Positions 12,126 to 41,652 of a stretch of DNA of 64,000 nucleotides are shown in pieces; the stretch's first letter is position 1; each line of letters opens with the position of its first letter. The notes below the pieces were generated by a model. That model did no database searches. It was not told where the DNA came from and saw only the letters and a program-made list of their open reading frames with translations. The stretch covers positions 174,850 to 238,849 of the forward strand of contig OZ246418.1 in the NCBI GenBank assembly GCA_965231155.1. The letters are read 5' to 3'. Made by a program: the position numbers and the translations under genes. The DNA is from an uncultured Candidatus Saccharibacteria bacterium (GTDB taxonomy: Bacteria > Patescibacteriota > Minisyncoccia > UBA6257 > 2-01-FULL-56-20).

Positions 12126-12878
12126 ATGAAACTGAGCTTCTCTATACCAGCCCACAACGAAGAAGAAAGGATCTGGCGGTGCCTTGAATCAGTCCTCCGA
12201 GAACTCAAGAGGGGGAAGTACCAAGCTGAAATAATTGTCGTAGATAATGCTTCAACGGACCGTACTGCCGAAGTGGCTCGCTCGTACGGTGGAGTTCAGG
12301 TTGTCTCTGAACCAACTAAAGGACTCCTCTTTGCTCGCCAACGTGGCTATCTCTCTTCTCATGGAGAACTCCTGGCGAATATCGATGCTGACACGATACT
12401 CACCGAGGGGTGGATCAAAACCGTTATCGAAGAGTTCGACAAAGATCCAAATCTAGTTGCCTTGAGTGGTCCTTATATCTACTACGACCTCCCCTGGACA
12501 GCCAGACAGGCAACTAAAGCATTCTATGCAGTGGGAATGTTCTTCCACTATCTCTCCATTCTTTTCACTGGTCGGGGAACCATGGTCCAGGGTGGCAACT
12601 TCGTATTGCGGCGAACTGCTCTTGATAAAATTGGTGGGTTCAATACAAATATCTCTTTCTACGGAGAGGATACCGATATTGCCCGACGCATCAGTCAGGT
12701 AGGGAAAATTAAGTTCACCTTCCGGCTTCCGATGCAGACTTCTGGCCGGCGACTGGCCGAAGAGGGGGTTTGTGTGACCGGACTGCGGTATGCTATAAAC
12801 CATTTCTGGGTACTCCTCTCAGGGAAGCCCTTCACGAAAAAATACGAAGACCTACGACCGCCACAAAAATTATCATGA
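12126..12878 (+). CDS. glycosyltransferase family 2
   Basis: SIPAHNEEE...VVDNASTDRT, a GT2 DxD-type motif. The track ORF start (12012) overlaps the upstream gene, so the start was moved to the ATG at 12126. Confidence 0.8.
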   Translation: MKLSFSIPAHNEEERIWRCLESVLRELKRGKYQAEIIVVDNASTDRTAEVARSYGGVQVVSEPTKGLLFARQRGYLSSHGELLANIDADTILTEGWIKTVIEEFDKDPNLVALSGPYIYYDLPWTARQATKAFYAVGMFFHYLSILFTGRGTMVQGGNFVLRRTALDKIGGFNTNISFYGEDTDIARRISQVGKIKFTFRLPMQTSGRRLAEEGVCVTGLRYAINHFWVLLSGKPFTKKYEDLRPPQKLS

Positions 12879-14209
12879 GCTCTCCTCTTTCTCAAAAGAT
12901 CTTCCTTCTTGTCTCGGGCGATGTTCTCGTGCTTTACGCCTCACTCCTTCTGACGCTTGTTATTCGTTACGATGCAACCTGGCAAGAAGCCTTATCAGTC
13001 CATCTTGGGCCGTTTTCTTTTGTCTTCGCAGTCTGGATTGTAGTCTTCTATATTGCTGGTTTATATGACTTCAGAAAGATTACTAACAATATCACCTTCC
13101 TCACGCTCTTCAGCATTTCTCTTGTCCTCAACACCCTCATCACCACCGCACTCTTCTATTTAATTCCCGCCTTCGGCATTGCGCCTCGTGCAAATCTTTC
13201 TCTTCTCCTTATTATTTTTGCGATATTACAGATCTGCTGGCGTCGAATCTTCTGGTACTACCTTAAACAAAATCAGAATCTTTTTAGCGTCGTAATGATT
13301 GGTAATGATCCGACAATCGACGAGCTCTCTCGGGCGCTCGCAGAAAACCCCCAGATTGGTTATCGAGTAGTAGACCACATCCAGAATCCTCACGACCTCC
13401 AAGTTACTGAAAATATTGCTCAGAAACTCCGGACTGACAAGGCTGATGTGGTAGTCATCCCGCGAGGAGTAAAGCAAAACACTGAACTCCAAAAGATCTT
13501 CTACGGCCTTCTTTCTTCCGGTATCGCCATCTATGATGTCCCCGCTTTTTACGAAGAAGTTTTCCGCAAAATTCCCTTAAAAAATATCGAGGAGTCCTGG
13601 TTTTTGGAGCATATTTCAATCCGAAAAAATGTCTATGACGATCTCAAACGATTAAGTGAAATTATCACCGCCACCCTAACTGGCCTCTTTCTCCTTCCTC
13701 TTATTATTCTGGTAGCTCTTTTCATCCGCCTCTCCTCCCGTGGACCGGTGATTTTTTCTCAGCGAAGAATTGGTGCCCAGAATAAGATATTCACTCTCTA
13801 TAAGTTCCGAACCATGGTGCACGACGCAGAAAAAGATGGGGCAAAGTGGGCAAGTAAAAATGACCCGCGAGTTACCCTCTTCGGAAAAGTTTTAAGATAC
13901 TCTCACCTCGATGAACTGCCTCAGATTTGGAACATCATCCGTGGTGATCTATCGTTCGTGGGACCACGACCAGAACGACCGGAGTTTGTAGAAATCTTAG
14001 AGAAAGAGATCCCCCACTATGACATTCGCCACCTCATCAAACCAGGAGTAACTGGCTGGGCACAGATAAACTATCGCTATGGTTCATCGATTGAGGACTC
14101 CTATCAAAAACTCCAGTATGATATCTACTACCTGAAAAATCGTTCGCTTATCCTTGATATTGCCATTATACTAAAGACATTACGAACTTTATTCGTAAAC
14201 GAGACATAA
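12875..14209 (+). CDS. polyprenyl-phosphate sugar phosphotransferase (bacterial sugar transferase, WbaP/EpsB-like initiating enzyme)
   Basis: N-terminal TM helices plus a C-terminal IFSQRRIGAQNKIFTLYKFRTM...PGVTGWAQI catalytic domain. ATGA overlap with the upstream GT2. Confidence 0.9.
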   Translation: MSSPLSQKIFLLVSGDVLVLYASLLLTLVIRYDATWQEALSVHLGPFSFVFAVWIVVFYIAGLYDFRKITNNITFLTLFSISLVLNTLITTALFYLIPAFGIAPRANLSLLLIIFAILQICWRRIFWYYLKQNQNLFSVVMIGNDPTIDELSRALAENPQIGYRVVDHIQNPHDLQVTENIAQKLRTDKADVVVIPRGVKQNTELQKIFYGLLSSGIAIYDVPAFYEEVFRKIPLKNIEESWFLEHISIRKNVYDDLKRLSEIITATLTGLFLLPLIILVALFIRLSSRGPVIFSQRRIGAQNKIFTLYKFRTMVHDAEKDGAKWASKNDPRVTLFGKVLRYSHLDELPQIWNIIRGDLSFVGPRPERPEFVEILEKEIPHYDIRHLIKPGVTGWAQINYRYGSSIEDSYQKLQYDIYYLKNRSLILDIAIILKTLRTLFVNET

Positions 14210-14314
14210 GGGTTCATCCTCTCGTAACCTTTTCCATATTCAAAAGACACTGTGTGAATAGCTAGAAAACATTATTTTCAAAAAACCAATTAACTCAACA
14301 TAAATAAAAAATCT

Positions 14315-15232
14315 ATGAAAATTATCGTAACTGGTGGGGCCGGTTTTATCGCCTCTCATGTAACAGATGCCTATATCAGCGCCGGACATAAAGTTGTCGT
14401 TATTGATAATCTGAATACAGGGTTTCGCAAAAACGTTAATCCTAAAGCAACCTTCTACAAGGCAGACATTCGAGATCTTCCCACAATGGAGAAGATTTTT
14501 AAAAAAGAAAAGCCAGAGATTCTTAATCACCACGCGGCTATCGCTGAAGTGGTGAAATCGGTCAGCAACCCAATTCCCACTTATGAAGTAAACGTAATCG
14601 GTACCGCCAATGTACTTCTGTGCTTTGGCAAGTTCGGCAAGGGAGCAAAGAAGGTTTTATTCTCCTCTACAGGCGGAGCGATCTATGGAGAGCCAAAGAA
14701 AATCCCCGCTCCAGAGACAACTCCAGCGAATCCCCTCTCTCCCTATGGCCTCTCTAAGCTACTTGGCGAGGAGCTGATAAATTTTTATGCGCGAACCTAC
14801 AAACTGAACTACCTCATTTTTCGTTATCCAAACGTGTATGGCCCCCGCCAGAATCCAAAAGGTGAAGCAGGGGTAGTGGCCATTTTTGGTGGAATGATGA
14901 AGCAAGGTATTCAACCTACAATTTTTGGTGATGGCACTAAGGCCCGCGATTATACCTATGTAGCCGATATCGTTCAGGCGAACCTGAAGGCCTTAACTAA
15001 GGGGAATCAGACAATCACCAACATCGGTTGGGGAAAATTAATCTCCGATACAATGATCTTCGAAACTATTGCCTCTTTATTAAAATTTGAAAAGCCAGCC
15101 AAGTATGCTCCCTATCGTCCTGGAGAAGTTTATCGAATATCTCTGAACGCAACAAAAGCAAAGAAGATCCTGGGCTGGAAGCCCACCGTCCCTCTGGCGA
15201 ATGGAGTAGCCAAAACCCTGGCCGCGCTCTAA
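14315..15232 (+). CDS. NAD-dependent epimerase/dehydratase (SDR, GalE-like)
   Basis: MKIIVTGGAGFIASHV Rossmann motif plus YxxxK. Confidence 0.85.
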   Translation: MKIIVTGGAGFIASHVTDAYISAGHKVVVIDNLNTGFRKNVNPKATFYKADIRDLPTMEKIFKKEKPEILNHHAAIAEVVKSVSNPIPTYEVNVIGTANVLLCFGKFGKGAKKVLFSSTGGAIYGEPKKIPAPETTPANPLSPYGLSKLLGEELINFYARTYKLNYLIFRYPNVYGPRQNPKGEAGVVAIFGGMMKQGIQPTIFGDGTKARDYTYVADIVQANLKALTKGNQTITNIGWGKLISDTMIFETIASLLKFEKPAKYAPYRPGEVYRISLNATKAKKILGWKPTVPLANGVAKTLAAL

Positions 15233-15705
15233 CGTTTCTTTCTGTCTTTTACTTTCTCCACATAGGCCGACAGCAACCAGGAGCTGGACTGTATTTTTCC
15301 GTCCGGTCCGATATTAAAAACCATCTTAGTACCAATCCTTTCGCATACTGGCACTTCGGGAATATTCTTCTTTGTTCGATCACCACCATTTGCAAAAATA
15401 TCTGGCTTTATCTCCTCAAGCTCCCGACAGACACTCATATCCTCTGGGTTTGGCCTGTGCCTTGTGAGAATAACCCGATCAACAACTCGCAACGCTTCAA
15501 TGACTGCTTTTCTCTCAACTTCTGGCATAAAAATATGATGCTTCTTCGCTCGTAACCAGTTGTCATTATTCAAGATAACAACTAGTTCATCACCAAGCTT
15601 TTTAGCTTCTTCAAATAACTGAATGTGGCCGATATGAATAGGATCGAACCCGCCACTCACGGCCACCACCTTTTTCTTTTTGTCCTGCTTCATAATGAAC
15701 TTCAT
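15229..15705 (-). CDS. cytidylyltransferase-like nucleotidyltransferase (HIGH family; TagD/RfaE domain II-like)
   Basis: VVAVSGGFDPIHIGHIQLFEEAKKLGDELVVIL. Start trimmed to an internal Met (15705; 15693 also possible) to avoid overlap with the divergent flippase gene. Confidence 0.7.
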   Translation of the reverse strand: MKFIMKQDKKKKVVAVSGGFDPIHIGHIQLFEEAKKLGDELVVILNNDNWLRAKKHHIFMPEVERKAVIEALRVVDRVILTRHRPNPEDMSVCRELEEIKPDIFANGGDRTKKNIPEVPVCERIGTKMVFNIGPDGKIQSSSWLLSAYVEKVKDRKKR

Positions 15706-15774
15706 TCTAACAAGGGAAATTACTAAAACACAACTCCATAGCAACGGTAAAAAAAATATGCTAACCTCGGGACA

Positions 15775-17238
15775 TTGCCCCATAACATGCTCCAAAAACT
15801 AACCGACTTCTTTCTTATAAATAACTCAACCCGCCAGAAGGTTCTCAAAAACACCTTCTGGCTCTTTTTCGGGCAGGTTGGTTCTCGCTTCGTGAAGCTA
15901 GGAATTATTATCTACGCCGCGCGCGTTCTGGGAGCTAGTGGCTGGGGGGCTTTTTCTTATGCGCTCGGCATCGCTGCTTTCTTTTCCATCTTCATTGATT
16001 TCGGAGTAAACGGAGTACTCACTCGCGAAGGTAGTCGAGATCTCAAGTCCCAGGAAAAATATTTCGCCACTGCCTTGGCTATTAAGATTTTCCTCTTCTT
16101 CCTATCATCGGCCGCTATCTTCCTCCTCTTTCCTTTATTTATGACCAGAAATGAAGTGGCTATCCTCATGCCCTTTGTAGTTTTGATTGTTGGTTTTGAT
16201 GGTCTACGAGATTTTGCGGGAGCGATGTCCCGAGCTTGGGAGCGAATGGAGATCGAAGCAGTGATGCAGATCTTGACTAGCGCGTTCATTCTCATCGCTG
16301 GCTTTATCGCTCTCTTTCTCTCGCCTACTCCGAAGGCGCTGGCCATCGGTTACGCGGTTGGCGTCGGACTGGGAATGCTAGCTTCCTTCTGGCCTTGTCG
16401 AGGATATTTTAAGAATCTTTATCAGGCATTCTCATTGTCACTTATTCGACCAATTGTTTCTGCCAGTTGGCCATTTGCACTCTCTGGACTAATGGGAGCA
16501 GTGCTCTTAAACACCGATACAGTTCTTATCGGATGGCTCCTCGATATTACAAATGTTGGCTACTACTCAGCAGCACAACGAATCGCCCTCCTCGCCTATG
16601 TTATTCCTGGACTAACCGCTACGGCTTTTTTTCCTTCAATGGCAAAATTCTTCGAAGATAAGGAGCGGCGAAAGATACTTCTTGAAAAACTTGCTACCCT
16701 TCAGATATTAATAGCCCTTCCTCTCACGATCGGAAGCTATCTCCTTGCAGAACCAATCATCACACTTTTTTATGGGCAGGAGTACACTCCAGCTATTCTT
16801 AGTTTTCAGATCATGAGCCTCACCTTCTTACCGGTTTTCCTCCAAACTATTTTCAGTAACACAATTTTTTCCATCAACGAAGAAAAGAAATTGTTCCTCT
16901 CTTCTATTGTTGGCATCATTGGCAATCTCACTCTCGATATTATTCTTATTCCACGCTGGGGTATCGCTGGCGCTGCTCTAGCAACTGTCCTCAACCAAAC
17001 CATTGTGGTTAGTTTTTTATGGTGGCTTCTCCGGAAAAAAATTGCCTTCTCACTACTCCCTCAGATCGGGAAGATTATTATTGCCAGCGTTGTTATGCTC
17101 GTCGTTTTAGTTTTCCTTCTTCAATTTACCATCAGCATCTATTTTGTAGTTCCCATTGGTATTCTGGTCTATGGTAGCGTTCTTCTTTTCCTTCGAGAAG
17201 AGATACTACGGGAAACTTTCAGGACGTTTATAAACTAA
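15775..17238 (+). CDS. MOP-superfamily polysaccharide flippase (Wzx-like)
   Basis: 487 aa, roughly 12-14 TM helices, polysaccharide-biosynthesis-protein architecture. A paralog lies at 23644..25143. Confidence 0.8.
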   Translation: MPHNMLQKLTDFFLINNSTRQKVLKNTFWLFFGQVGSRFVKLGIIIYAARVLGASGWGAFSYALGIAAFFSIFIDFGVNGVLTREGSRDLKSQEKYFATALAIKIFLFFLSSAAIFLLFPLFMTRNEVAILMPFVVLIVGFDGLRDFAGAMSRAWERMEIEAVMQILTSAFILIAGFIALFLSPTPKALAIGYAVGVGLGMLASFWPCRGYFKNLYQAFSLSLIRPIVSASWPFALSGLMGAVLLNTDTVLIGWLLDITNVGYYSAAQRIALLAYVIPGLTATAFFPSMAKFFEDKERRKILLEKLATLQILIALPLTIGSYLLAEPIITLFYGQEYTPAILSFQIMSLTFLPVFLQTIFSNTIFSINEEKKLFLSSIVGIIGNLTLDIILIPRWGIAGAALATVLNQTIVVSFLWWLLRKKIAFSLLPQIGKIIIASVVMLVVLVFLLQFTISIYFVVPIGILVYGSVLLFLREEILRETFRTFIN

Positions 17239-17293
17239 AAAGAACATAAAAAAACCCGATGATTAGATCATCGGGGGGGTTCGTCTTCTGTCC

Positions 17294-17821
17294 TTAGATA
17301 AGATTAAGGGAAAGAATCTCCTCAAGGCTCCTCACCACGTGGAGTGGTCTACACAAAGACAACTCTGATTCGTTGTACTCATTGAGAACGAAGATAGTCT
17401 TTAGTCCTGCCGCTTGTCCCGCAAGTACATCTCGGTCACTGTCGCCGATCATGAAAGATGTATTAGGATCGTCGACACCGAACTCCTTCAAGGCCTGGAG
17501 AAGCATACCCGGCTTCGGCTTGCGACAGTCGCAGTTGTCCTCGTTGATATGGGGACAGGCGTACACCTTGTCCAACATCCCTCCAAGTTGCTTCTCCATT
17601 GAAAAATGAATCTCCGCAAGAGTGACAGGTGAGAGCAAACCCTTACCAATCTGCGGTTGGTTGGTTGCTACCGCAAGTTTGTAATCAAGCTCCTTGGCTC
17701 TCTCTAGGAGTTGGACTGCGCCTGGAACTATCTCCAACTGGTCGAGGCGGAGCAGATGCTCCCCCCGAGGCATGGCTCGGACCAACGTTCCATCACGATC
17801 AAGAAGTAGAACCTTGTTCAT
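17294..17821 (-). CDS. gmhB: D-glycero-D-manno-heptose 1,7-bisphosphate phosphatase (HAD-IIIA)
   Basis: LLDRDGTL motif, Zn-binding CPH...C.CRKP and GDSDRD. Confidence 0.85.
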   Translation of the reverse strand: MNKVLLLDRDGTLVRAMPRGEHLLRLDQLEIVPGAVQLLERAKELDYKLAVATNQPQIGKGLLSPVTLAEIHFSMEKQLGGMLDKVYACPHINEDNCDCRKPKPGMLLQALKEFGVDDPNTSFMIGDSDRDVLAGQAAGLKTIFVLNEYNESELSLCRPLHVVRSLEEILSLNLI

Positions 17822-17875
17822 AGAATTCCTTTCTTAATTATTAGCTATGTCCGAGTGTAACACCATTTCTTTTCA

Positions 17876-17904
17876 TTGACAACATTCATATATTATTTTA
17901 TAAG
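17876..17904 (+). promoter_or_regulatory. sigma70-like promoter for the HIT gene
   Basis: TTGACA - 17 nt - TATAAG lying in the AT-rich leader immediately upstream of the GC-rich CDS. Confidence 0.45.
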
Positions 17905-17935
17905 ATCAATAGCTCTTAGAAAGGAGAAAGGAAGA

Positions 17936-18766
17936 ATGCCAGGTATCGTTACAAATCTGCCCGGCGGGCAGCAAAGAACTCTTTCCGGGGGAACTCGGAA
18001 TGAGGTGAAGCTGTCCCGGCCGTGGCAGGCATCGCTTTCCGCGATCATCGATCCGGAAAACTGCCCGTTCTGCAACAAGCCCCAGGAGGATCTCGTTCTG
18101 CCGAGTAATTCTCCGAAGGGTTGGCGATGGCTGCCGAATATCTTCACTCCCCACCCGGAACACACACTCCTCATCCCTGATCGCTGCTGGCTAGAAGAGG
18201 AACTCCAGGAATGGGGTGGAGAGAAGAAAATCTGCGAGGCGATTCAGATTGCCTCTCGGGTATTCCGACGCCACCGAAAAGAGATGATTGCATTGGCTCA
18301 CGTCGAGCATCAGTCCGGACAAAACTTGGGCCACGCTCACTTGCACTTCTTCGAGGTGCAAGTGACAAATCCTCTCTCCGCCAGGTCATTGGAGATGAAA
18401 GATCTGATGGTCCTTGGTCAAGACGGGATCACAGCCATAGCCGGAGGAGTGAAGGCGGGAGAATGCCTTCTCTTCTCCGAACACGAGGCACCTTTCAGTC
18501 TCCAGACGGCCGAAACTGTTGGCCAAGTACTTCACCGCCTCATTGCCGTGGGCAACAAGGCGTGGAAAAGCACCCAGGGCCTCGCACCGAGCTATAGCTT
18601 CGCGGTGCGAGTCTCGGCTGATGGACTCTTTCGGTATGGTTGCTACTCTCCCAATCTCTCAAATTGGGGGGTCTACAACCACACGGTGACAGCCTTGGAA
18701 GGCGAACCCTACGTCCTCCCGTGGCCTCATGAGACGACAGTGGACCATCTTCGCCGTTTCGTCTAA
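17936..18766 (+). CDS. HIT-family (histidine triad) nucleotide hydrolase/transferase with about 120-aa C-terminal extension
   Basis: NCPFCNK...PHPEHTLLIP and GHAHLHFF match the Hint CIFCK...P.APTHFLVIP and HVHLHVL motifs. GC is markedly higher than the flanks. Start moved to the ATG at 17936, after an AAGGAG RBS. Confidence 0.6.
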   Translation: MPGIVTNLPGGQQRTLSGGTRNEVKLSRPWQASLSAIIDPENCPFCNKPQEDLVLPSNSPKGWRWLPNIFTPHPEHTLLIPDRCWLEEELQEWGGEKKICEAIQIASRVFRRHRKEMIALAHVEHQSGQNLGHAHLHFFEVQVTNPLSARSLEMKDLMVLGQDGITAIAGGVKAGECLLFSEHEAPFSLQTAETVGQVLHRLIAVGNKAWKSTQGLAPSYSFAVRVSADGLFRYGCYSPNLSNWGVYNHTVTALEGEPYVLPWPHETTVDHLRRFV

Positions 18767-18775
18767 GTATTTTCT

Positions 18776-18806
18776 GCCTCGTTGCTTACGCAACGAGGCT
18801 TTTTTT
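18776..18806 (+). terminator. rho-independent terminator after the HIT gene
   Basis: Perfect 10-bp stem GCCTCGTTGC / GCAACGAGGC with a 4-nt loop, followed by TTTTTTT. Confidence 0.85.
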
Positions 18807-19548
18807 ATTCACTCTTTTTCTCTCGATACCAATCCTGAGCAAGTTTATATTTTTCAGGAGTGCCAATGTCCAAGATATTCTCTTCGGTAGGAAAACCATA
18901 AATATCGTCTCGCTCTTGTATTAATGAAGGTAGAATCTGACCATCTAGTTTTACTGGTTCAATAGTTGGAATAAAATCAAGAATTTTCTTTGAGAGCACA
19001 TAAAGGCCACTGTTTAAATGATACTTATCTCCATATTCTTCAATTCCATGAGGACGCTTGTGCCAGGCAGTAATTCTTCTGGTTATCGGATCAACCTCCG
19101 CGATCTCACCATTTGCAGGTATGTCAGAGTGCTTAAGAACTAAGGTGGCCAGCGCCTTCTGCTTCTCATGAAAATCGAGAATTTCTCCAAAATTATAAAA
19201 ATGAAGGTGGTCGCCATAAAGCATCAGAAAAGTATCCGATAAGAAAGGCTCCATTTTTTTTAACGCCCCACCAGTTTCTAGTAGATTCTCTGTTTCATCA
19301 GAGTAGACAATCTCCACTCCCCATTTTTCTCCATTGCCAAAATGACTAACGACTATTTCCGATAAATAGTGGAGATTAATTACAAATTTTTTAAAACCCT
19401 GATCGCGGAGCAAAAGAATGGTGTGTTCAAGAAGTGGCACCCCTTCAAACGGCACCATTACTTTTGGCATGGTGTCCGTAATCGGTCGAAGACGAGTACC
19501 TAACCCAGCCGACAAAAGAGCCACTGTAATTTTTGAGCGATCGAACAT
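18805..19548 (-). CDS. sugar-1-phosphate nucleotidyltransferase (heptose 1-phosphate guanylyltransferase HddC-like)
   Basis: LSAGLGTRLRPITDTMPKVMVP NTP-transferase motif. Sits within the gmhA-hddA-gmhB cluster. Confidence 0.75.
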   Translation of the reverse strand: MFDRSKITVALLSAGLGTRLRPITDTMPKVMVPFEGVPLLEHTILLLRDQGFKKFVINLHYLSEIVVSHFGNGEKWGVEIVYSDETENLLETGGALKKMEPFLSDTFLMLYGDHLHFYNFGEILDFHEKQKALATLVLKHSDIPANGEIAEVDPITRRITAWHKRPHGIEEYGDKYHLNSGLYVLSKKILDFIPTIEPVKLDGQILPSLIQERDDIYGFPTEENILDIGTPEKYKLAQDWYREKKSE

Positions 19549-19550
19549 GC

Positions 19551-20156
19551 CTATTGAGCACTACCCTTCTGGACCAGTTGGTCAAAATAATCTTTGAAGT
19601 ACTTCGTCATTAAGTGCATGATCGTGTGATGAACACTCTCCACAATCTCGTACTGCCCCTTCTCAGTCTTCACGAGGATCTTCGCATCAGATAACTGGTT
19701 CAGTTTTCCACCATCAAAGCCAGAGAGACCGATAACTGGCACGTGACGGCTCTTCGCGAGCTCTACTCCCTTGATAACATTTGTTGAATTCCCAGAACTC
19801 GAAATAGCAATAACCACATCGGCATCCTGAAGGTAGTTCTGCAAGGGGCCAGCAAAGACCATATCGAATCCCTCGTCGTTAGCCCAAGCAGTTAACTCAG
19901 ATTCGGTGGTTGGTACTCGGATAGCTTGAAAGCGACGATTATGCTTATCAAGGTGATGGCTAAAAACTGTCTTGTTGAAATCGCTGACCCAGTGGGTGGC
20001 AATGGCCAGCGAACCACCGTTCCCGAAAACATAGATTCGACCATCACGTTCATAGACGGCTTCTAAAATATTCAGAGCTTTTGCAATCTCTTCTGAGGGT
20101 AGCTGATAAAGAGAGTCCGCTACTCGTGAAGAAAAGTCTTCGATATATTTTTTCAT
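19551..20156 (-). CDS. gmhA: phosphoheptose (sedoheptulose-7-phosphate) isomerase, SIS domain
   Basis: VFGNGGSLAIATH and AISSSGNS SIS motifs. Confidence 0.85.
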   Translation of the reverse strand: MKKYIEDFSSRVADSLYQLPSEEIAKALNILEAVYERDGRIYVFGNGGSLAIATHWVSDFNKTVFSHHLDKHNRRFQAIRVPTTESELTAWANDEGFDMVFAGPLQNYLQDADVVIAISSSGNSTNVIKGVELAKSRHVPVIGLSGFDGGKLNQLSDAKILVKTEKGQYEIVESVHHTIMHLMTKYFKDYFDQLVQKGSAQ

Positions 20157-20159
20157 ATA

Positions 20160-21182
20160 TTAAGCAAAGGTTGGTCGCTCGGTATTACCATGATACAGGA
20201 TCTGGGCGCCCGACTGCACAAAGTGAACAGGCACTTCGCGAAAATCTGCTAAGTTATGCTTCTGGCCCATCTTTTGCATAGCCAGACGAATGGCAGGATG
20301 CTTCTCTGGTTTGGCCAGAAGGAGAATGCAACCACCGCCACCAGCACCAAGAATCTTCCCGCCCCAAGCGCCCTCACTTAACCCGGCTTCGTACAAACTA
20401 TCAATGGAAGCAGTCGACATATTCGAAGCCAGAGATTTCTTCCTAGACCAACCTTCGTGGAGCATCTTCCCCATACCCTCGATATCACCGGCCATCAAGC
20501 GACTTTCAAATTCAGGGACGGAATCTGACATCTGCTTCAGAGTTTCGAAACGATTCTGAATATTCGCCTTTTGCTCGGTGAGCACAGACGAGGCAGCACG
20601 AGTGATCCCGGTGTAAAAAAGAAGAATATGATCTTCTAAGGCCAAACGTTTTTTGTAGTCCAGAAGTACCGGCCTTACAGTCACTGTGCTATCTGGATTA
20701 AACTGAAAAATATTAAATCCACCGAAGGCTGAGGCGTACTGATCCTGAAGACCAACCGGTTCTTTTAGAAGTTCCAGTTCAAGACGGACAGCCTCACGAG
20801 CCGCTGACTCCTGGTCTAGTTTTTTCCCCAAATGCGCATGAAGTGCCTTCAAGAGTGCTACTGAAAAACTAGAGGATGAACCGAGGCCAGTCTTACTCGG
20901 AAGATCTGAAAATGAAGCGATTTCCAGGCCTTGGTGAATGCCTAGGTCTAGCAAGGCGGCCTTGAGACGGGTATGCTCAAGCTCGTTAGGATGATTTACT
21001 AATTCTGTCTGGGTATATTTAGCGGTAATTTTATCAACCAGAGGCGTGGGATTAACCAGAATATGGACGTACTTATCAATGGCCGTAGAAATAACTCGCC
21101 CTGGATACTGATGAAAAAAATCGGGTATATCTGTACCTCCACCGACGAAACTAACTCGGAGAGGAGCGCGCACAATAATCAT
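20160..21182 (-). CDS. hddA: D-glycero-D-manno-heptose 7-phosphate kinase (GHMP kinase)
   Basis: PLRVSFVGGGTDIPDF and PSKTGLGSSSSFSVALLKALH GHMP motifs. Start set to the internal Met MIIVRAP. Confidence 0.8.
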   Translation of the reverse strand: MIIVRAPLRVSFVGGGTDIPDFFHQYPGRVISTAIDKYVHILVNPTPLVDKITAKYTQTELVNHPNELEHTRLKAALLDLGIHQGLEIASFSDLPSKTGLGSSSSFSVALLKALHAHLGKKLDQESAAREAVRLELELLKEPVGLQDQYASAFGGFNIFQFNPDSTVTVRPVLLDYKKRLALEDHILLFYTGITRAASSVLTEQKANIQNRFETLKQMSDSVPEFESRLMAGDIEGMGKMLHEGWSRKKSLASNMSTASIDSLYEAGLSEGAWGGKILGAGGGGCILLLAKPEKHPAIRLAMQKMGQKHNLADFREVPVHFVQSGAQILYHGNTERPTFA

Positions 21183-21259
21183 GCCCCGAATATTACCCAA
21201 ATTTCCGAGAAACGTCAAAGACAAGGAATTCCGGAAGAATATCAGAACGCCCTATTTTT

Positions 21260-22090
21260 TTAAAACGATCGACGCTTCCAAAAAGAAAGAACGGTATGCA
21301 ATCTCTTCCTTATAAAAACTGGGAGAAAAGAATAAAGGTACTGGGAAAGATTCAAGCTAAAACCAAACCAGAACCGAGGGTAGTCGTGACGATGCGTCCA
21401 CAGAAAAGACAAGATAGTCCTTGCTTGAGCGTGTTGATGAACAAAAGACTTATTTTGGCCAGCGAGGAGATACGCGGTGAAATATTCCGGGATGTTGTAC
21501 ATCTTCCCCTTAGTACCAAGTTTCAACCACAACTCCCAATCTTCGGCGTACTGCCAGTGACCATAGCCACCAACAGCTAACACAGTTTCTCGACGAAACA
21601 TTACCGTGGTATGCGAAAAGGGATTCGCGAAAAGAGCACCTCGGCGAATATCTTCATCTTTCTCTTTCTTGAGATAGCGATAGAGCTCTTTATTATCCTT
21701 ATCAATCATGACCATTCCACTGCCAACCAAAACATAATCTAGATGAGCCTCTAGAAATTCAACCTGACGGACCAATTTTTCTGGATCTCGCCAGTAATCA
21801 TCATCATCCAATCGGGCAATGTACTCCCCCTTGGAAACTGCAATACCATCGTTCAAAATCTTCGAAATATCTGGATAACTATTTTTTTGATTATGAATAA
21901 CTTTGATCCGTGAATCTTTCTTCTGCCATTCTTCGAGGACAGCCCCAGTTTGATCAGTTGAAGCATCATTAATAATAATGAGTTCCCAATTTTTGTAAGT
22001 CTGATCGACAACGCTCTGAATAGCCCTATCGAGCAACATCGCTCGATTATAGGTTGGCATTACAATAGAAACCAACGGTTCAGGAGTCAT
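21260..22090 (-). CDS. glycosyltransferase family 2
   Basis: VSIVMPTYNRA...IIINDASTD. Confidence 0.85.
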   Translation of the reverse strand: MTPEPLVSIVMPTYNRAMLLDRAIQSVVDQTYKNWELIIINDASTDQTGAVLEEWQKKDSRIKVIHNQKNSYPDISKILNDGIAVSKGEYIARLDDDDYWRDPEKLVRQVEFLEAHLDYVLVGSGMVMIDKDNKELYRYLKKEKDEDIRRGALFANPFSHTTVMFRRETVLAVGGYGHWQYAEDWELWLKLGTKGKMYNIPEYFTAYLLAGQNKSFVHQHAQARTILSFLWTHRHDYPRFWFGFSLNLSQYLYSFLPVFIRKRLHTVLSFWKRRSF

Positions 22091-22094
22091 TGTT

Positions 22095-22784
22095 TTAAAT
22101 TACTTTAGGCTGTCGTGCCTCCCAAAAAAGACAGTAGTCGGAAGCAACCTCTACTTTGACTTGATCAAAAAACTCTTTAAGAACAGCTTCGAGATCCTTC
22201 CGACTGTACTCCCGAAGATGAAAGCGAGAACCAGAAAAAGTTTTATATGGAGTAGGATTATGAGGCGTAGAGCCGATATAAAGACCATCCGGCTTTAAGG
22301 CCATAACAATTCGTGAAAGAAGTCGACGGTACTCCTCCTCCGTAATATGTTCGATAAACTCACTCGAAACAACAACATCAAATCCAGAAGGCAAAGTCTG
22401 ATCTTTTGCTAAATCCTGACTCTGATAGTGAATCTTCTCATTTGTAGAACGGAAGTCGTTAATTTTATCTAAGCCAATAATCTCAGTGACTTTTTCATTC
22501 CCTGCGAGACGACGAGTAAGGTATCCATGGCCACAACCGATATCCAGGACTCGACCGTAGACCTTCTGAGTCAGAACGGTAGCGTAGGATTCGAAATAAG
22601 AATCTCCATCACCAGCTTCGTGTTCGTCAGGACGTTCAGCGCCAAGCCTAGAGAAATAACGCTTATCGAAAGCCATTGAAATCTCACGAACCAAAGGGAT
22701 CTTTTTGGCTTGCCACCGCAGTCGCCGAACGAACAACCGAACCCTTGGAAAACGGTCGAGGAATTTTCTTAGAAATTTCATCAT
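22095..22784 (-). CDS. class I SAM-dependent methyltransferase
   Basis: VLDIGCGHGYLTRRL motif I. Confidence 0.8.
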   Translation of the reverse strand: MMKFLRKFLDRFPRVRLFVRRLRWQAKKIPLVREISMAFDKRYFSRLGAERPDEHEAGDGDSYFESYATVLTQKVYGRVLDIGCGHGYLTRRLAGNEKVTEIIGLDKINDFRSTNEKIHYQSQDLAKDQTLPSGFDVVVSSEFIEHITEEEYRRLLSRIVMALKPDGLYIGSTPHNPTPYKTFSGSRFHLREYSRKDLEAVLKEFFDQVKVEVASDYCLFWEARQPKVI

Positions 22785-22842
22785 AATGCCTCAATAGTAC
22801 TTGAACCGAAGGCCTCTATCAACTACCCAAATAGGGAGAAGC

Positions 22843-23544
22843 CTACCACTCTTTAATAGCTCGCTCCCAGCGTTCCAGTGTTCCACAATCGAAACATCGG
22901 GCATAGTGGTCACGAAAACCATAGAGTCTTCCTTGGCGGGCAAGATCCGGAAGAAGGTCCTGTTCAATCATTATTAAATCCTTACTGAAATCAATATCAT
23001 TAAAAATTTCTGGCTCCATAACATACAATCCACCGCTCACGAAATCTGATGATGGTTCTACTGGTTTCTCCAAAAATGAAACAATCTGATCACCACTCAT
23101 CGTGGGAACTCCGAAGTTGTGTGGATCTGGAACTCTCATCAGTGCCAAAGTTACTTTAGCCTTGGAGCTCTTGTGAGCTGTCAATAAAGCTGTGAGATCA
23201 AAATCTTTCAGATCGTCGCCATTTGAAACAACGAATGTCTCCTGGCCTAACCAATCCCGTAGTAGCTCAAATCCTCCCAGTGTTCCTCGTGGGTGTGGTT
23301 CATGAAAAATTCTTATCGGAACAGCAGGTAGCTCATCAGCCCAAGCTTTGTGCCAACGACGAAAATCATCGGCGTGCTCCTGAGCGGCAAGAAGTCCGAT
23401 CTCGGTCACACTATGACGCGCCAAAAACTCAATGGTGTGATTAACAATCGGTTTTTTCTGAACCGGAATAAGTGGCTTAGGAAGCTCGTAGGTGACTGGC
23501 CTTAGACGGGTACCACGACCCCCAACAAGAATAACGGCTTTCAT
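22843..23544 (-). CDS. sugar-1-phosphate nucleotidyltransferase
   Basis: MKAVILVGGRGTRLRPVTYELPKPLIPV. Start set to the internal Met. Confidence 0.8.
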   Translation of the reverse strand: MKAVILVGGRGTRLRPVTYELPKPLIPVQKKPIVNHTIEFLARHSVTEIGLLAAQEHADDFRRWHKAWADELPAVPIRIFHEPHPRGTLGGFELLRDWLGQETFVVSNGDDLKDFDLTALLTAHKSSKAKVTLALMRVPDPHNFGVPTMSGDQIVSFLEKPVEPSSDFVSGGLYVMEPEIFNDIDFSKDLIMIEQDLLPDLARQGRLYGFRDHYARCFDCGTLERWERAIKEW

Positions 23545-23643
23545 AGTTTGGAAATGATTATAAGGAGATGGAGTACGCAGATCTGGGAGTCCTTGGTCTT
23601 CCCTAAATGAATATGCTAACCTTTCCCTACAAGAATACATATC

Positions 23644-25143
23644 ATGTCAGAGGAACAAAATCAAAGAATGAGTAAGGGGCATCGACTCAAAGTCTTCCTC
23701 CTTAAGAACTCCACTCTTCAACAAACGGTAGCAAAAAATACCTTCTGGCTCGCCGCGAGCAATATGGGAGGCCGCCTGCTCCGGGCTGTCATCATCATCT
23801 ACGCTGCCCGGGTACTGGGCGTGACTGAGTGGGGAGTGTTCTCTTATGCCATCACCCTTTCGGCACTAATGACTGTCTTCATCGACTTTGGTATTAACCA
23901 CATTGTAGTGAGGGAGGTGGGAAAGATTCTAGATAGCCAACGAAAATCTCAGTTAATTTCTACAGCCTTCTTTATTAAAATCGGACTACTCTTTATTGGT
24001 ATATTAGTTATTCTTTTTGCTGCACCACATTTTTCCACGATTCCTGCGGCAAAAGCCATCCTCCCTCTTATCGCCCTCCTCCTCGCCTTCGACTCTCTCC
24101 GAGAATTCGGATTCTCTCTGGCTAGGGCTTCAGAGAAGATGGAGTGGGAGGCGGGACTCTCTTTCGTAACCAACTCGGTCATTGTGATCTTTGGATTTCT
24201 ATTCTTATGGTTGGCACCTTCAGTCCAGTCGTTTACCCTGGCCTACGTAATCGGATCAGCAACTGGCACAATCATAACCTTCTTCACGCTACGTCACTAT
24301 TTCTTCAATCTTATTTCAAATTTCTCTCTACCCGACGTTAGATTTATTCTGACAACCGCTTGGCCATTCGCCGTCTCTACCTTGTTGGGAGGATTAATGA
24401 TCAACACGGATATTTTCATCATTAGTTGGCTGAGATCAGCAAGCGATGTTGGTCTTTACTCAGCTGGTCAGCGTATTATTCAGATCCTTTATATTGTTCC
24501 CTCTATCCTCGCAACAAGTGCCTTACCGATTTTTGGACGTTTGGCCATAAAAGACGACCAAAGAATGCGCCAGGCAACGGAAAGAATTCTAGGGCTAATT
24601 CTTCTCTTGGCTATTCCCCTGGCCCTAGGTGGCTTTCTCCTCGGACCACAAATAATCTCTCTGGCTTTTGGCGAGGCCTATGCGGGATCAGTTAGCTCAT
24701 TTCAAATCCTCGCGCTCACCATACTTGCTGACTTCCCCGCTGTGATTTTAGCGAACGCTATCTTTGCCTACAACAAACAACGAGGACTAATCATCTACTC
24801 AGCTATCGGCGGATTCTTAAATGTCATTCTTGATCTTCTCTTCATCCCCTACTGGGGAATTGCTGGATGCGCCCTGTCTACTCTCATTGCTCAAATTGTC
24901 AGTAATATTTACCTTTGGAGTTCACTTAAAAAAATCAATCCCTTCAGCGTAGGTCAACGACTCTATAAAATTATGGTAGCTACTATAGCCATGGGAGCAA
25001 CCATCGTCTTCCTCGTGTCACTCTCCCTGCATATTCTCATTATCATTCCACTCGCTAGCCTTCTTTATATCGCTAGTCTCGTCGCTCTCAAAGACCCTCT
25101 TCTCGAGGAAGGTCGAGCTCTATGGATAGCCTCAGAGCGTTAG
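23644..25143 (+). CDS. MOP-superfamily polysaccharide flippase (Wzx-like), second copy
   Basis: 499-aa multi-TM protein, paralogous to 15775..17238. Confidence 0.8.
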   Translation: MSEEQNQRMSKGHRLKVFLLKNSTLQQTVAKNTFWLAASNMGGRLLRAVIIIYAARVLGVTEWGVFSYAITLSALMTVFIDFGINHIVVREVGKILDSQRKSQLISTAFFIKIGLLFIGILVILFAAPHFSTIPAAKAILPLIALLLAFDSLREFGFSLARASEKMEWEAGLSFVTNSVIVIFGFLFLWLAPSVQSFTLAYVIGSATGTIITFFTLRHYFFNLISNFSLPDVRFILTTAWPFAVSTLLGGLMINTDIFIISWLRSASDVGLYSAGQRIIQILYIVPSILATSALPIFGRLAIKDDQRMRQATERILGLILLLAIPLALGGFLLGPQIISLAFGEAYAGSVSSFQILALTILADFPAVILANAIFAYNKQRGLIIYSAIGGFLNVILDLLFIPYWGIAGCALSTLIAQIVSNIYLWSSLKKINPFSVGQRLYKIMVATIAMGATIVFLVSLSLHILIIIPLASLLYIASLVALKDPLLEEGRALWIASER

Positions 25144-33217: not shown

Positions 33218-34768
33218 TCAACTCTTCTCCTCGAGGAGCTTCCGCTTCAGATCGCGAACTCCATCGACCCAACGATCGATCGAAGTCAGGGCAACCTGCC
33301 CAAACTTCGGGTCAGCCAGAATGCTGCTCCGGAACTCCGCACGCTCGAAGTAACTCACGTGAGCCCAATCTCGGAAGGCCAGGATCTCAGCGGGCGTGAG
33401 CGCATCACCCGCATAGTACGGCTCAGACTCGTAGGCGTACTGGGAGTGTCCGATCCACCCAGGACCACCGGGACGAGCCGGCAAAGGATAGCCTGAAGCC
33501 ACTCCCTGACGGTAGAGCTCCGACCCCGGAAGAGCCTGCGTGCAGTACATATTCACGAACCGCGTGTTCAACTGACACGCCAGTTCATATGTCTCCTGCA
33601 GGCTCTCTCGAGTATCTCCGGGCAACCCGAAGATGTAGTTGGCACCGACATAGGCACCCGCGGCGTGAATCTGATCGACCACGCGTTGGATGTCGCCCTC
33701 ACCGAACTTCTTGTCCTGTCCGGAGCGGACTTTCGAGTTGGCGGCTTCGATACCCAACCCGAACCAGTAGATGCCTGCTCGACGAGCCGCCTCCAGAAAG
33801 CGCGGCTTGCAGGTGTCGACTCGAGCGTAACACCAGAAGTCCAACGAATCCCCGAAACGTTCGGCGATACCATTGGCGATGGTGATGACATGCTCGGCGT
33901 TCAGCGCGAACATCTCGTCGGGAATCTTGAAGTACTTGATTCCGTAGGTCTCGACGAGATGCGTCACCTCCTCCACAAAAAACTCGGGACGGAGGAAACG
34001 GTAGCTGTTACGCCTGACATTGCCCCGATCCATGAGACTCTCTCCAGCCCGAAAGGGGGCCTGGATATTGCAGAAGTCACAGTGGAAGGGACAGCCCTCG
34101 ACCGAATAGGGATTGGCATACCCCGCCCGTTCCGCGTAGGGACGGTAAAAGGTGTGCCAGCCGTCGGCATGATACACCCGCGGATCCATGAGAGCCCAGG
34201 CCTCCGGAGAGACCCTTTCCTCATTCAGATCGAGCAGCGGCGCCGGTGGGTTGTGAATCGTCTGGCCATCCTTGCGGTGCCAGAGACTACGAACTTTGTC
34301 CAGCTCGCCACCACCCTTGAACGCCTGGACCAACTCATAGGCGGTGATTGGTCCTTCGCCGTCGCAGACGAAATCGATCGGCTCCTCCGCGAGCGTTCTC
34401 GCCGGAAGCGCTGCCGGATGAGTTCCCGAGAAAACAATGGGAATCTCCGGACACAGATCCTTGATCGCCTGAGCGTAGGCCCGGGCAGCCGGCATGGTGT
34501 GAGTGCTGGACGACGGATTGAACCCGTAGACCGGCAACCAAACCAATCGCGGCTTTGCATCTTTGACCACCCGAGCCATCAACTCGGATGTGTACCCGAG
34601 AATCGTAGCATCGAGCAATCCCACGCCGAGACCTCGACGCAGAAGGTAGCTGGCCATAAACCGTGCCTTGGCAGGCGGCTCGGTATGGTGTTCGCGCGCA
34701 AAGCCTTGATAGACCTGCACGAGATTGCTAGGAATGACGAAAAGAACGTCGAGCTTCCTGCTTTCCAT
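33218..34768 (-). CDS. B12-binding radical SAM protein (class B, cobalamin-dependent radical SAM; putative sugar C-methyltransferase/epimerase)
   Basis: N-terminal Rossmann-like B12-binding region (DVLFVIPS...) and CPFHCDFC (Cx3Cx2C) radical-SAM cluster motif; 516 aa. GC is about 58-60%, against about 46% in the flanks. GGAG RBS 7 nt upstream of the start. Confidence 0.75.
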   Translation of the reverse strand: MESRKLDVLFVIPSNLVQVYQGFAREHHTEPPAKARFMASYLLRRGLGVGLLDATILGYTSELMARVVKDAKPRLVWLPVYGFNPSSSTHTMPAARAYAQAIKDLCPEIPIVFSGTHPAALPARTLAEEPIDFVCDGEGPITAYELVQAFKGGGELDKVRSLWHRKDGQTIHNPPAPLLDLNEERVSPEAWALMDPRVYHADGWHTFYRPYAERAGYANPYSVEGCPFHCDFCNIQAPFRAGESLMDRGNVRRNSYRFLRPEFFVEEVTHLVETYGIKYFKIPDEMFALNAEHVITIANGIAERFGDSLDFWCYARVDTCKPRFLEAARRAGIYWFGLGIEAANSKVRSGQDKKFGEGDIQRVVDQIHAAGAYVGANYIFGLPGDTRESLQETYELACQLNTRFVNMYCTQALPGSELYRQGVASGYPLPARPGGPGWIGHSQYAYESEPYYAGDALTPAEILAFRDWAHVSYFERAEFRSSILADPKFGQVALTSIDRWVDGVRDLKRKLLEEKS

Positions 34769-40164: not shown

Positions 40165-40227
40165 TACCAACTCCCAAAGAGTTGGATTGATTAACCCTTA
40201 GCCCTCCCCCAAAGGGAGAAAGGAGTG
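40165..40227 (+). repeat. 63-nt conserved leader, copy 1, upstream of the ORF at 40231
   Basis: GTACCAACTCCCAAAGAGTTGGATTGATTAACCCTTAGCCCTCCCCCAAAGGGAGAAAGGAGT. Hairpin 1 is CCAACTC-CCAAA-GAGTTGG; hairpin 2 is CTCCC-CCAAA-GGGAG, overlapping the SD GGGAGAAAGGAG. Identical to 40923..40985. Confidence 0.9.
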
Positions 40228-40230
40228 ACA

Positions 40231-40818
40231 ATGGAACAGGGAATCCCCGTGAGATTCTCGCCGTGGATGCGACTCAGTGCGGTAGAAGCTGCCACCAAGG
40301 CTGGCAGCAGAAACCAAATGACTGAAACCTCTCTCTGGGTCTACTGGGTTCTGACCCGAGGAGGAAAAACACGGCTGGATCTCTTCGACGTTGGGAGAGA
40401 TCTCTTCTACAGTAATCCGTGGAGAGGTGCTCCTCCACAACCAAAGAAGAATCCCGTACTTAGTCGAGTGCTGGTCGTCGGCACAAACGCCGAAGTCAGT
40501 ACTATCCTCCAAGGAAACCCGCTGGCTCGAAAGTCTCCTAGCTATCAGGCATACAAGAAGGCTTTCGATCAGGGCATAAGACGTCTCAAAGTCGACAGTG
40601 TCGGAACCCTGGAAGGCTTCTGGCCTGTCTTCATGGGCGTTGATGATTTTCTTGGAAGGCCGGACGACCGGAGTTTGCCTTCTCTGGTAGTCACAACTGG
40701 ATTCATGAGAAACTACCCTCGCATAGGGGGTGAGACTCTTGAAGTTGCGGATCGACTCAAAGACATCTGCAAACTCTGCAACGTTCCAATTGAATTTATC
40801 CCTTCTTTTTGTTCGTAA
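40231..40818 (+). CDS. hypothetical protein (GC-rich, no family recognised)
   Basis: 196-aa ORF (track uses a GTG start at 40225; the ATG at 40231 has better SD spacing). High GC, own terminator. Confidence 0.5.
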   Translation: MEQGIPVRFSPWMRLSAVEAATKAGSRNQMTETSLWVYWVLTRGGKTRLDLFDVGRDLFYSNPWRGAPPQPKKNPVLSRVLVVGTNAEVSTILQGNPLARKSPSYQAYKKAFDQGIRRLKVDSVGTLEGFWPVFMGVDDFLGRPDDRSLPSLVVTTGFMRNYPRIGGETLEVADRLKDICKLCNVPIEFIPSFCS

Positions 40819-40850
40819 GCCGAAGATTTAATCTATCTCGGCTTTTTTTA
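40818..40850 (+). terminator. intrinsic terminator after the hypothetical ORF
   Basis: AGCCGA...TCGGCT stem followed by TTTTTTT. Confidence 0.6.
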
Positions 40851-41634: not shown

Positions 41635-41652
41635 CAAATCTGCCTTTATGCA

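Follow-up and report, generated by a model that had tools for sequence, protein, structure and literature searches.

Between positions 17,294 and 21,182 of the window (the whole stretch of DNA analysed here, 64,000 nucleotides of contig OZ246418.1 from an uncultured Candidatus Saccharibacteria bacterium), minus-strand genes resembling gmhB, hddC, gmhA and hddA, the set leading from sedoheptulose-7-phosphate to a nucleoside diphosphate (NDP)-heptose, are accompanied by a single plus-strand open reading frame (ORF) for an HIT-like protein, which lies between gmhB and hddC exactly as a first, sequence-only reading of this DNA had described. We find that this ORF encodes a genuine HIT-superfamily enzyme, and that it represents an unannotated, compact GalT-type HIT family which is restricted to the Candidate Phyla Radiation (CPR) and the DPANN archaea and is tied to NDP-heptose metabolism, without amounting to a new principle. 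As for its function, the account that we hold, with moderate confidence, is that of a nucleotidyltransferase or phosphorylase which is accessory, is exchanged horizontally and acts at the GDP-heptose/heptose-1-phosphate node by way of a nucleoside monophosphate (NMP) carried on His135. The fold, the motifs and the genomic association are observed, and it is the substrate, the nucleotide, the acceptor and the binding of zinc that we infer.

The fold of the protein is predicted with confidence (AlphaFold model, pLDDT 91.6, pTM 0.91), and over its whole length the best Foldseek match is the ADP-glucose phosphorylase At5g18200 of Arabidopsis (E 1e-10, TMq 0.63-0.70), followed by the human and E. 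coli GalT enzymes (E 4e-9 to 4e-8), then by a DUF4931 protein (8e-7) and yeast Apa2 (1e-5) and, much lower down, by Hint and Fhit proteins, which have a single domain. Whole-length alignment of the model to PDB entries 1ZWJ, 2H39, 5IN3 and 1HXQ likewise gave TMq values of 0.62-0.70. In the model the secondary structure repeats itself, residues 1-140 being matched by residues 158-276, such that, on this prediction, the C-terminal 139 residues make up a second, non-catalytic half-barrel of HIT type that completes a compact GalT-type fold, and are no add-on to a Hint protein (residues ~145-276, 18368-18763, plus strand, without catalytic histidines). The proposal of a Hint-like enzyme with an extra C-terminal extension thus gives way to a GalT-type double half-barrel, the extension itself being 139 residues when counted after the histidine triad, in place of the supposed 120 or so. 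The alternative offered alongside it, that of a nucleotidyltransferase resembling GalT or Ap4A phosphorylase, is by contrast borne out by the top structure matches, At5g18200 (E 1e-10, TM 0.69) and class I GalT.

Direct searches with the single protein are uninformative. It has no Pfam match even at an E value of 10, barring a spurious one to DUF7130, and nothing significant in NCBIfam or in sequence searches of the PDB, so that membership of the HIT superfamily rests on family profiles together with the fold. A word-indexed search returned 30 relatives, all nameless or labelled only "hypothetical protein", and an exhaustive profile search returned 360 representatives at E < 1e-3, of which 136 lie at E < 1e-30; nearly every full-length representative has 265-305 amino acids (aa). 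Searched against the PDB, the family profiles recover Hint proteins over residues ~40-140, at E 1e-6 in one search and 3e-11 in a later one, and more weakly At5g18200 (4e-5), the GalT entry 6k5z (1.5e-4), Apa2 (5e-3) and DUF4931 (5e-3). The Pfam HIT model PF01230 is matched by 76 of 125 family members at E < 0.1 (best 9e-8) and DUF4931_N is touched by two of the 125, while neither the window protein nor any of these members matches the Pfam GalT models PF01087 and PF02744 at that threshold. The assignment to the HIT family therefore holds for the window protein through its relatives and its fold.

These results also dispose of the notion that the ORF is spurious or decaying, either an open GC-rich stretch or the pseudogene remnant of an insertion. 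In its favour are the unusual composition of the gene and the long alternative-frame ORFs that its GC-rich sequence also holds; it is nevertheless effectively refuted by the 136 representatives at E < 1e-30 with their invariant catalytic residues, by the confident fold, by a ribosome-binding site and a terminator in place, by the occurrence of the identical protein in three independent assemblies, and by the lack of any consistent overlapping ORF across loci.

The motifs first read from the sequence were all confirmed by direct reading (plus strand throughout): C43-P-F-C46 at 18062-18073, HTLLIP at residues 76-81, and the histidine triad H133-A-H135-L-H137-F-F at 18332-18352 (residues 133-139). 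To these can be added R28-P-W-Q31 (18017-18028), which is nearly invariant in the family, as well as H76 (18161-18163) and C84 (18185-18187), both conserved at 90% or more, as are H133, H135 and H137 among 125 sequences. In the alignments of 30 and of 125 sequences the conserved elements comprise GGTR, RPWQ, CxFC, W63, NxxTP, H76, P81, C84 and GQNxxHxHxH in the first repeat, and GGxRAG(E/Q)C, NxKFxS, YxPxLxxWG and LPWPHExT in the second. A rearranged form of the family, of ~265-280 aa, was also observed (P0144, P0158, P0161, P0163, P0164), in which profile segments 195-281, 160-190 and 15-141 follow one another, an order that places the catalytic half at the C-terminus and is not a simple circular permutation. 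In one close relative (HddC 75% identical) the HIT-like gene is split over two frames (L040:2183-3102, minus strand), which may reflect a frameshift or an assembly error, the contig having ~2x coverage.

How these motifs might work can be gauged by comparison with E. coli GalT, whose sequence was verified against 1HXQ. Profile alignment by hhalign of the 125-sequence family alignment to this enzyme reaches an E value of 4e-4 and ends at GalT residue 272, while the smaller 30-sequence alignment gave no significant result (probability 1.3%). The larger alignment pairs RPWQ with RPWQ (R31-P-W-Q in GalT), C43 and C46 with C52 and C55, N68 with N77, and the triad H133/H135/H137 with H164/H166/Q168. 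On the family side the paired residues are either invariant or conserved at 90% or more among the 125 sequences. In GalT, H166 carries UMP and C52, C55, H115 and H164 bind zinc (PMC5081055), and the ping-pong chemistry through a His-NMP intermediate has been summarised in a preprint on class II GalT (bioRxiv 10.64898/2026.09.13.751320). By these equivalences H135 is predicted to be the nucleophile forming a covalent NMP intermediate, and C43, C46, H133 and either C84 or H76 would make up a zinc site, with C43-P-F-C46 as its putative CxxC element.

The association with heptose metabolism emerges from the neighbourhoods of the relatives. With the four heptose enzymes of the window as queries, every ORF of the fetched loci was searched, and the counts, made within the fetched flanks, refer to 27 non-redundant loci that came to light through the HIT-like protein only. 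At least one heptose gene is found in the flank of 21 of the 27, HddA in that of 18, and in 10 a heptose gene lies within 300 nt of the HIT-like gene. The immediate neighbour varies from locus to locus, being HddA, HddC, GmhA or GmhB, and the two possible strand arrangements are both represented. In the closest relative (72% identity) the gene arrangement is identical to that of the window, and relatives at 31-45% identity are placed in or beside heptose clusters whose gene order has been shuffled; likewise a rearranged homologue on a Pacearchaeota contig (L038:3854-4690, plus strand) is situated inside a heptose cluster. This conserved neighbourhood strongly supports the link to NDP-heptose that had been suspected from the window. 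The titled genome matches are Patescibacteria/CPR assemblies, otherwise-labelled bins, which are probably mis-binned, or two DPANN archaea. Two further features of these operons were observed. A transaldolase gene accompanies gmhA and gmhB in three of them (L013:9792-10577, L032:13135-13869, L034:4902-5651), supplying sedoheptulose-7-phosphate, so that the operon by itself leads from central sugar phosphates to heptose, and Niyogibacteria-type loci carry an HddC-GmhB fusion of 444 aa that joins an NTP_transferase to a HAD domain (L010/L011/L012:12064-13398, L018:4998-6374).

In the remaining six loci the fetched flank is devoid of heptose genes. Three of these contexts are clearly not glycan-related: in L005 the gene adjoins an inositol-monophosphatase-family gene, in L017 it is found between EamA and CorA transporters, and in L019 its neighbours are a HAD hydrolase and an AdoHcy hydrolase. 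The others are L029, a glycan locus on the same contig as L015, L035, a 3.3-kb contig with hardly any flank, and L033, where the gene is enclosed by two GDP-mannose 4,6-dehydratase-family genes, a context that points to GDP-sugars.

The same comparisons indicate that the HIT-like enzyme is not a core step of the pathway. Related heptose operons without the gene exist (L042, L045, L046, L047), with hddA-gmhA-gmhB-hddC contiguous in L042 and L045. Moreover, when the same loci are compared in pairs, the identity between their HIT-like proteins is poorly correlated with that between their HddA proteins (r = 0.31): in three loci the HIT-like proteins are 67-71% identical and HddA only 39-47%, and, conversely, between the window and five loci HddA is 62-65% identical and the HIT-like proteins only 34-39%. 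In relatives of the L031 type the order is hddA-gmhA-hddC-gmhB followed by a convergent HIT-like gene at the end of the operon, such that the apparent interruption in the window looks like a local exchange of places between gmhB and the HIT-like gene. The description of the pathway as interrupted is therefore apt in so far as some related operons lack the gene and the similarities are discordant, and misleading in so far as the gene is a recurrent companion of the pathway that has undergone local rearrangement and not a random insertion. The simplest reading is that of a single accessory gene, repeatedly exchanged horizontally and retained on landing in a heptose or GDP-sugar locus. An origin in defence systems or phages was considered and rejected, there being no PADLOC match, only a meaningless PHROG match (E 0.16), and no relative in IMG/VR when two family patterns were used as queries.

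The composition of the gene presents a similarly divided picture. Its coding sequence has a GC content of 0.561, and of 0.632 at third codon positions (GC3), against a mean GC of 0.460 (standard deviation 0.036) for the 60 long ORFs of the window, which puts it about 2.8 standard deviations above the mean. It shares this status in the window with a radical-SAM gene (0.586) and an ORF without known function (0.561), and gmhB is also raised (0.506), the heptose genes ranging from 0.399 (hddC) to that value. In most loci the HIT-like gene is richer in GC than its flanks, by 0.18 in L008 and by 0.13 to 0.15 in L010, L015, L017, L033 and L035; L016 and L029 likewise belong to the GC-richer group, in which GC3 is 0.55-0.83. 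In GC-richer hosts it is compositionally normal (L005, L020-L023, L028, L032). The excess persists even between copies that are ~70% identical, for which one would expect amelioration, and it could stem from repeated transfer or from selection for high GC. The label "compositionally foreign" describes a real outlier, here and in most loci, which at the same time turns up repeatedly beside heptose clusters.

A conserved overlapping or antisense ORF as the cause of the excess was rejected by comparing the longest alternative-frame ORFs in 23 loci with synonymous shuffles, no frame being consistently long. The +2 frame showed stop-free stretches above the shuffles in 8 of the 23 loci (L001, L004, L006, L008, L017, L020, L028, L031; p <= 0.09 each), a weak and uncontrolled tendency which may amount to ordinary bias in codon context, as the null model does not preserve codon-junction dinucleotides. 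In GC content the window's most extreme outlier is the radical-SAM gene already mentioned, a B12-binding type at 33218-34768 on the minus strand (GC 0.586, GC3 0.69), which may be a sugar C-methylase; a similar gene is present in the heptose/glycan locus of L032 (14839-16437, plus strand). Two further stretches, 40198-40827 and 40990-41637 (GC 0.52 and 0.56), contain long ORFs on both strands and have no Pfam match in either orientation.

Foreign composition and discordant phylogeny would also suit a "safety valve" hydrolase splitting NDP-heptose into NMP and heptose-1-phosphate, or else a general housekeeping HIT enzyme acting on unrelated nucleotide conjugates (Ap4A, adenylylated or guanylylated compounds), glycan loci in this second case being mere hot spots of gene insertion. 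The full HxHxH triad is as in the Hint and Fhit hydrolases, Hint proteins are the best sequence-profile matches, and about one fifth of the loci lack a nearby heptose gene (L005, L017, L019). There is also precedent for an NDP-sugar hydrolase inside a glycan cluster, namely the NUDIX GDP-mannose mannosyl hydrolase of the colanic acid cluster. Yet four different heptose neighbours in varied order, the deep divergence of the family and the rearranged archaeal form would be hard to obtain by chance insertion, and the two-repeat GalT-type architecture with its conserved second-repeat motifs suggests a bipartite site for an NDP-sugar and not a simple nucleotide site. We regard either version of this explanation as rather improbable.

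In the nucleotidyltransferase or phosphorylase mechanism that we favour, the substrate would be the NDP-heptose made by the products of the neighbouring hddA, gmhA, gmhB and hddC, which is probably GDP-linked, given a pathway of HddA/HddC type and the presence of GDP-mannose dehydratase neighbours. His135 would attack the α-phosphate of this nucleotide sugar, releasing heptose-1-phosphate and leaving a covalent enzyme-NMP, probably GMP, and the NMP would then be handed to an acceptor, for which we rank phosphate first, another sugar-1-phosphate second and water third, the margin of phosphate over the other two being small. With phosphate the enzyme would be a phosphorylase (GDP-heptose + Pi <-> GDP + heptose-1-phosphate), a tentative first choice, which could serve to deplete the pool or to recycle it or, operating in reverse, to make GDP-heptose from GDP. 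Phosphate is favoured because the best structural relative is a phosphorylase, because HddC is usually present, so that a second synthetic enzyme is not needed, and because a reversible phosphorylase would explain an accessory role in controlling the pool. The existence of operons without an adjacent NTP_transferase means that an exchange or synthetic direction must also be entertained. In this context, replacement of HddC by the HIT-like gene was considered and could not be substantiated: in L020 and L032 a custom NTP_transferase hidden Markov model still detected a gene of this kind at a distance of 2-9 kb, the loci L023, L034 and L036 being too short for this test or starting at the HIT-like gene itself.

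With a sugar-1-phosphate as acceptor the enzyme would be a Leloir-type exchange transferase, catalysing for example GDP-mannose + heptose-1-phosphate <-> GDP-heptose + mannose-1-phosphate and hence an NTP-independent guanylyl transfer between sugars. The fold and the aligned active site fit class I GalT nearly as well as they fit the phosphorylase. The C-terminal YxPxLxxWGxxE, beyond the range of the hhalign alignment, resembles by eye (consensus against sequence) the GalT stretch FYPPLL...KFMVGYE, which we take to have a role in hexose-phosphate binding. The operons of L032 and L034, too, combine the HIT-like gene with hddA, gmhA, gmhB and a transaldolase in the absence of an adjacent NTP_transferase, and L033 lies among GDP-mannose dehydratase genes. 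However, the top structure match is a phosphorylase and not a transferase, an NTP_transferase is still to be found at the distance given above in L020 and L032, ~70 residues of GalT loops are missing from the window protein, and no donor pathway is consistently co-located, such that we consider an exchange transferase unlikely.

Several observations weigh against the function that we prefer, whichever the acceptor. The residue equivalences derive from a weak profile alignment (E 4e-4) and not from structural superposition. The His-x-His-x-Gln motif of the GalT branch is replaced in the window protein by HxHxH, with H137 opposite Q168, and this is kept in the family; since, to our knowledge, characterised GalT-branch transferases and phosphorylases carry HxHxQ, hydrolysis has to be kept in mind. 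Specificity for GDP is argued only from the type of pathway and its neighbours. GDP-heptose can be made without the enzyme, since most loci have HddC, and the six loci without a heptose gene in the fetched flank, three of them in clearly non-glycan contexts, imply that the substrate may be broader. Finally, literature searches, within the library that could be searched, returned no paper tying heptose clusters to an HIT or GalT-like gene.

Judged against known systems, the window protein would, on the modelled fold, work like the GalT branch of the HIT superfamily, although it departs from that branch in the HxHxQ motif and in the features captured by the Pfam GalT models. The nearest structural counterpart, At5g18200 (PDB 1Z84, 1ZWJ, 2H39), is the best match over the whole chain, consists likewise of two HIT-like repeats, presumably has a CxxC element ahead of its catalytic half as in the window protein, and handles an NDP-sugar through a histidine nucleophile, as predicted here. 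It differs in sequence (~12% identity) and in length (351 aa, the window protein at 276 aa being ~75 shorter), and the window family, unlike it, is prokaryotic (CPR/DPANN), heptose-linked and of HxHxH type. Class I GalT (E. coli 1HXP/1HXQ, human 5IN3) has in common with the window family the fold, RPWQ, the CxxC zinc ligands, NxF and His-x-His, and its ping-pong His-NMP chemistry is what we would expect of the window protein; in the window family the third triad position is His and not Gln, the proteins are much smaller and the context is not that of the Leloir pathway, and the iron-site region of GalT lies beyond the hhalign range. VTC2 and GDPGP1, the GDP-L-galactose and GDP-D-glucose phosphorylases, are GalT-branch HIT enzymes converting a GDP-sugar to GDP and a sugar-1-phosphate, by analogy the very reaction that we propose for GDP-heptose; they are eukaryotic, larger and of HxHxQ type, and no sequence or Pfam match to the window family was seen.

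Hint-type HIT proteins (PDB 5UVM, 3OJ7, 4EGU) give the best profile matches (3e-11 to 1e-8, residues ~40-140). They are single-domain homodimeric proteins of ~115-150 aa, whereas in the window protein the second repeat is covalently joined to the first, and the N-terminal GGTR/RPWQ hairpin typical of GalT-type enzymes is present. The DUF4931 protein BCE0241 (4QVU) and Apa2 (4I5T), both two-repeat and HIT-like, are recovered by structure and by profile, with lower TM-scores (0.41-0.51), and Apa2 acts on dinucleoside polyphosphates.

The coding sequence of the HIT-like gene (17936-18766, plus strand, 276 aa), in a frame that is open from 17876, starts at the ATG at 17936, 9 nt past the ribosome-binding site AGGAG (17922-17926), and its homologues begin at the same position. 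By direct reading, TTGACA (17876-17881) and TATAAG (17899-17904) are spaced by 17 nt upstream of it on the plus strand, as the sequence-only reading had stated. To call this promoter canonical was an overstatement: the -10 box lacks the conserved final T, the promoter scan did not list the pair, and promoter-like sites in the region (five) show no enrichment over shuffled sequence (4.7). A second promoter-like site, TTGTCA-N17-TACACT (17882 to 17854, minus strand), faces gmhB from within the AT-rich divergent intergenic region (17822-17935, 114 nt, GC 0.289). The perfect terminator claimed for the gene is fully confirmed, with a perfect 10-bp stem and a 4-nt loop at 18776-18799 followed by seven T residues to 18806 (plus strand; -19.2 kcal/mol, z -6.9), and these T residues overlap with the stop codon of hddC, the convergent gene. 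The gmhB-like gene has a terminator of its own (17275-17255, minus strand).

The flanking genes, all on the minus strand, comprise a gmhB-like HAD-IIIA phosphatase of the heptose 1,7-bisphosphate 7-phosphatase type (17294-17821, 175 aa, GC 0.506; TIGR01656, 6e-37), an hddC-like sugar-1-phosphate nucleotidylyltransferase of the NTP_transferase family (18805-19548, 247 aa, GC 0.399), a gmhA-like sedoheptulose-7-phosphate isomerase of the SIS family (19551-20156, 201 aa) and an hddA-like GHMP heptose-7-phosphate kinase (20160-21182, 340 aa from the ATG at 21182). The frame of the last stays open upstream to a TTG at 21224, and the 340-aa call is also that made in L001, an identical contig. The top NCBIfam name is a heptose enzyme for three of the four, the hddC-like protein having sugar-1-phosphate guanylyl- or uridylyltransferases as its top matches, and Pfam agrees on the families. 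None of the four reaches its curated NCBIfam equivalog cut-off, all remaining far below: HddA NF049969 (5e-46, score 158 against 600), GmhA TIGR00441 (7e-28, 97.5 against 209), GmhB NF006506 (2e-36, 125 against 178) and HddC NF049965 (2e-19, 70 against 300). Judged by these scores the four proteins are divergent, and the route from sedoheptulose-7-phosphate to GDP-heptose appears complete at the level of families, with SIS, GHMP kinase, HAD-IIIA and NTP_transferase genes clustered; specificity for GDP and for the α-anomer would follow from the HddA/HddC-type enzyme set.

Two kilobases away in the same glycan locus, an RfaE-domain-II-like nucleotidyltransferase gene of cytidylyltransferase fold (15229-15705, minus strand) has the heptose-1-phosphate adenylyltransferase domain as its top NCBIfam match (TIGR02199, 1.6e-22, below cut-off). 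It recurs in at least seven other loci with the HIT-like gene (L004, L015/L029, L026, L028, L030, L037, L043), and could encode a second activating enzyme for heptose or for glycerol phosphate. A second sugar-1-phosphate nucleotidylyltransferase of the NTP_transferase family is found at 22843-23544 (minus strand, 233 aa). The heptose genes are embedded in a larger surface-glycan locus (12770-25143), which contains, besides this second NTP_transferase, a Bac_transf initiating transferase, a GalE-like epimerase, two Polysacc_synt flippases, a GT2 glycosyltransferase and a methyltransferase, and which in its upstream portion shares synteny with a Liptonbacteria contig (L015/L029), suggestive of a source organism of the Parcubacteria type.

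Bacterial surface glycans are built by way of NDP-heptose pathways that have been thought complete with four textbook steps. We can conceive of the HIT-like protein as an NTP-independent heptose-activating or sugar-swapping enzyme, forming GDP-heptose from GDP or another GDP-sugar and heptose-1-phosphate, and spreading horizontally as a single-gene cassette among the nucleotide-scavenging Patescibacteria and DPANN symbionts. We give this conjecture little credence; if true, it would constitute a new enzymatic entry into NDP-heptose metabolism and an adaptation to nucleotide economy shared by bacteria and archaea. Even apart from it, a family for which there is no Pfam or NCBIfam model, and whose compact GalT-type fold keeps the full histidine triad, bridges the Hint-like and the GalT-like HIT enzymes, and the recurrence of a fifth enzyme in two ultra-small, host-dependent groups suggests an undescribed step of control, recycling or alternative activation at the GDP-heptose node.

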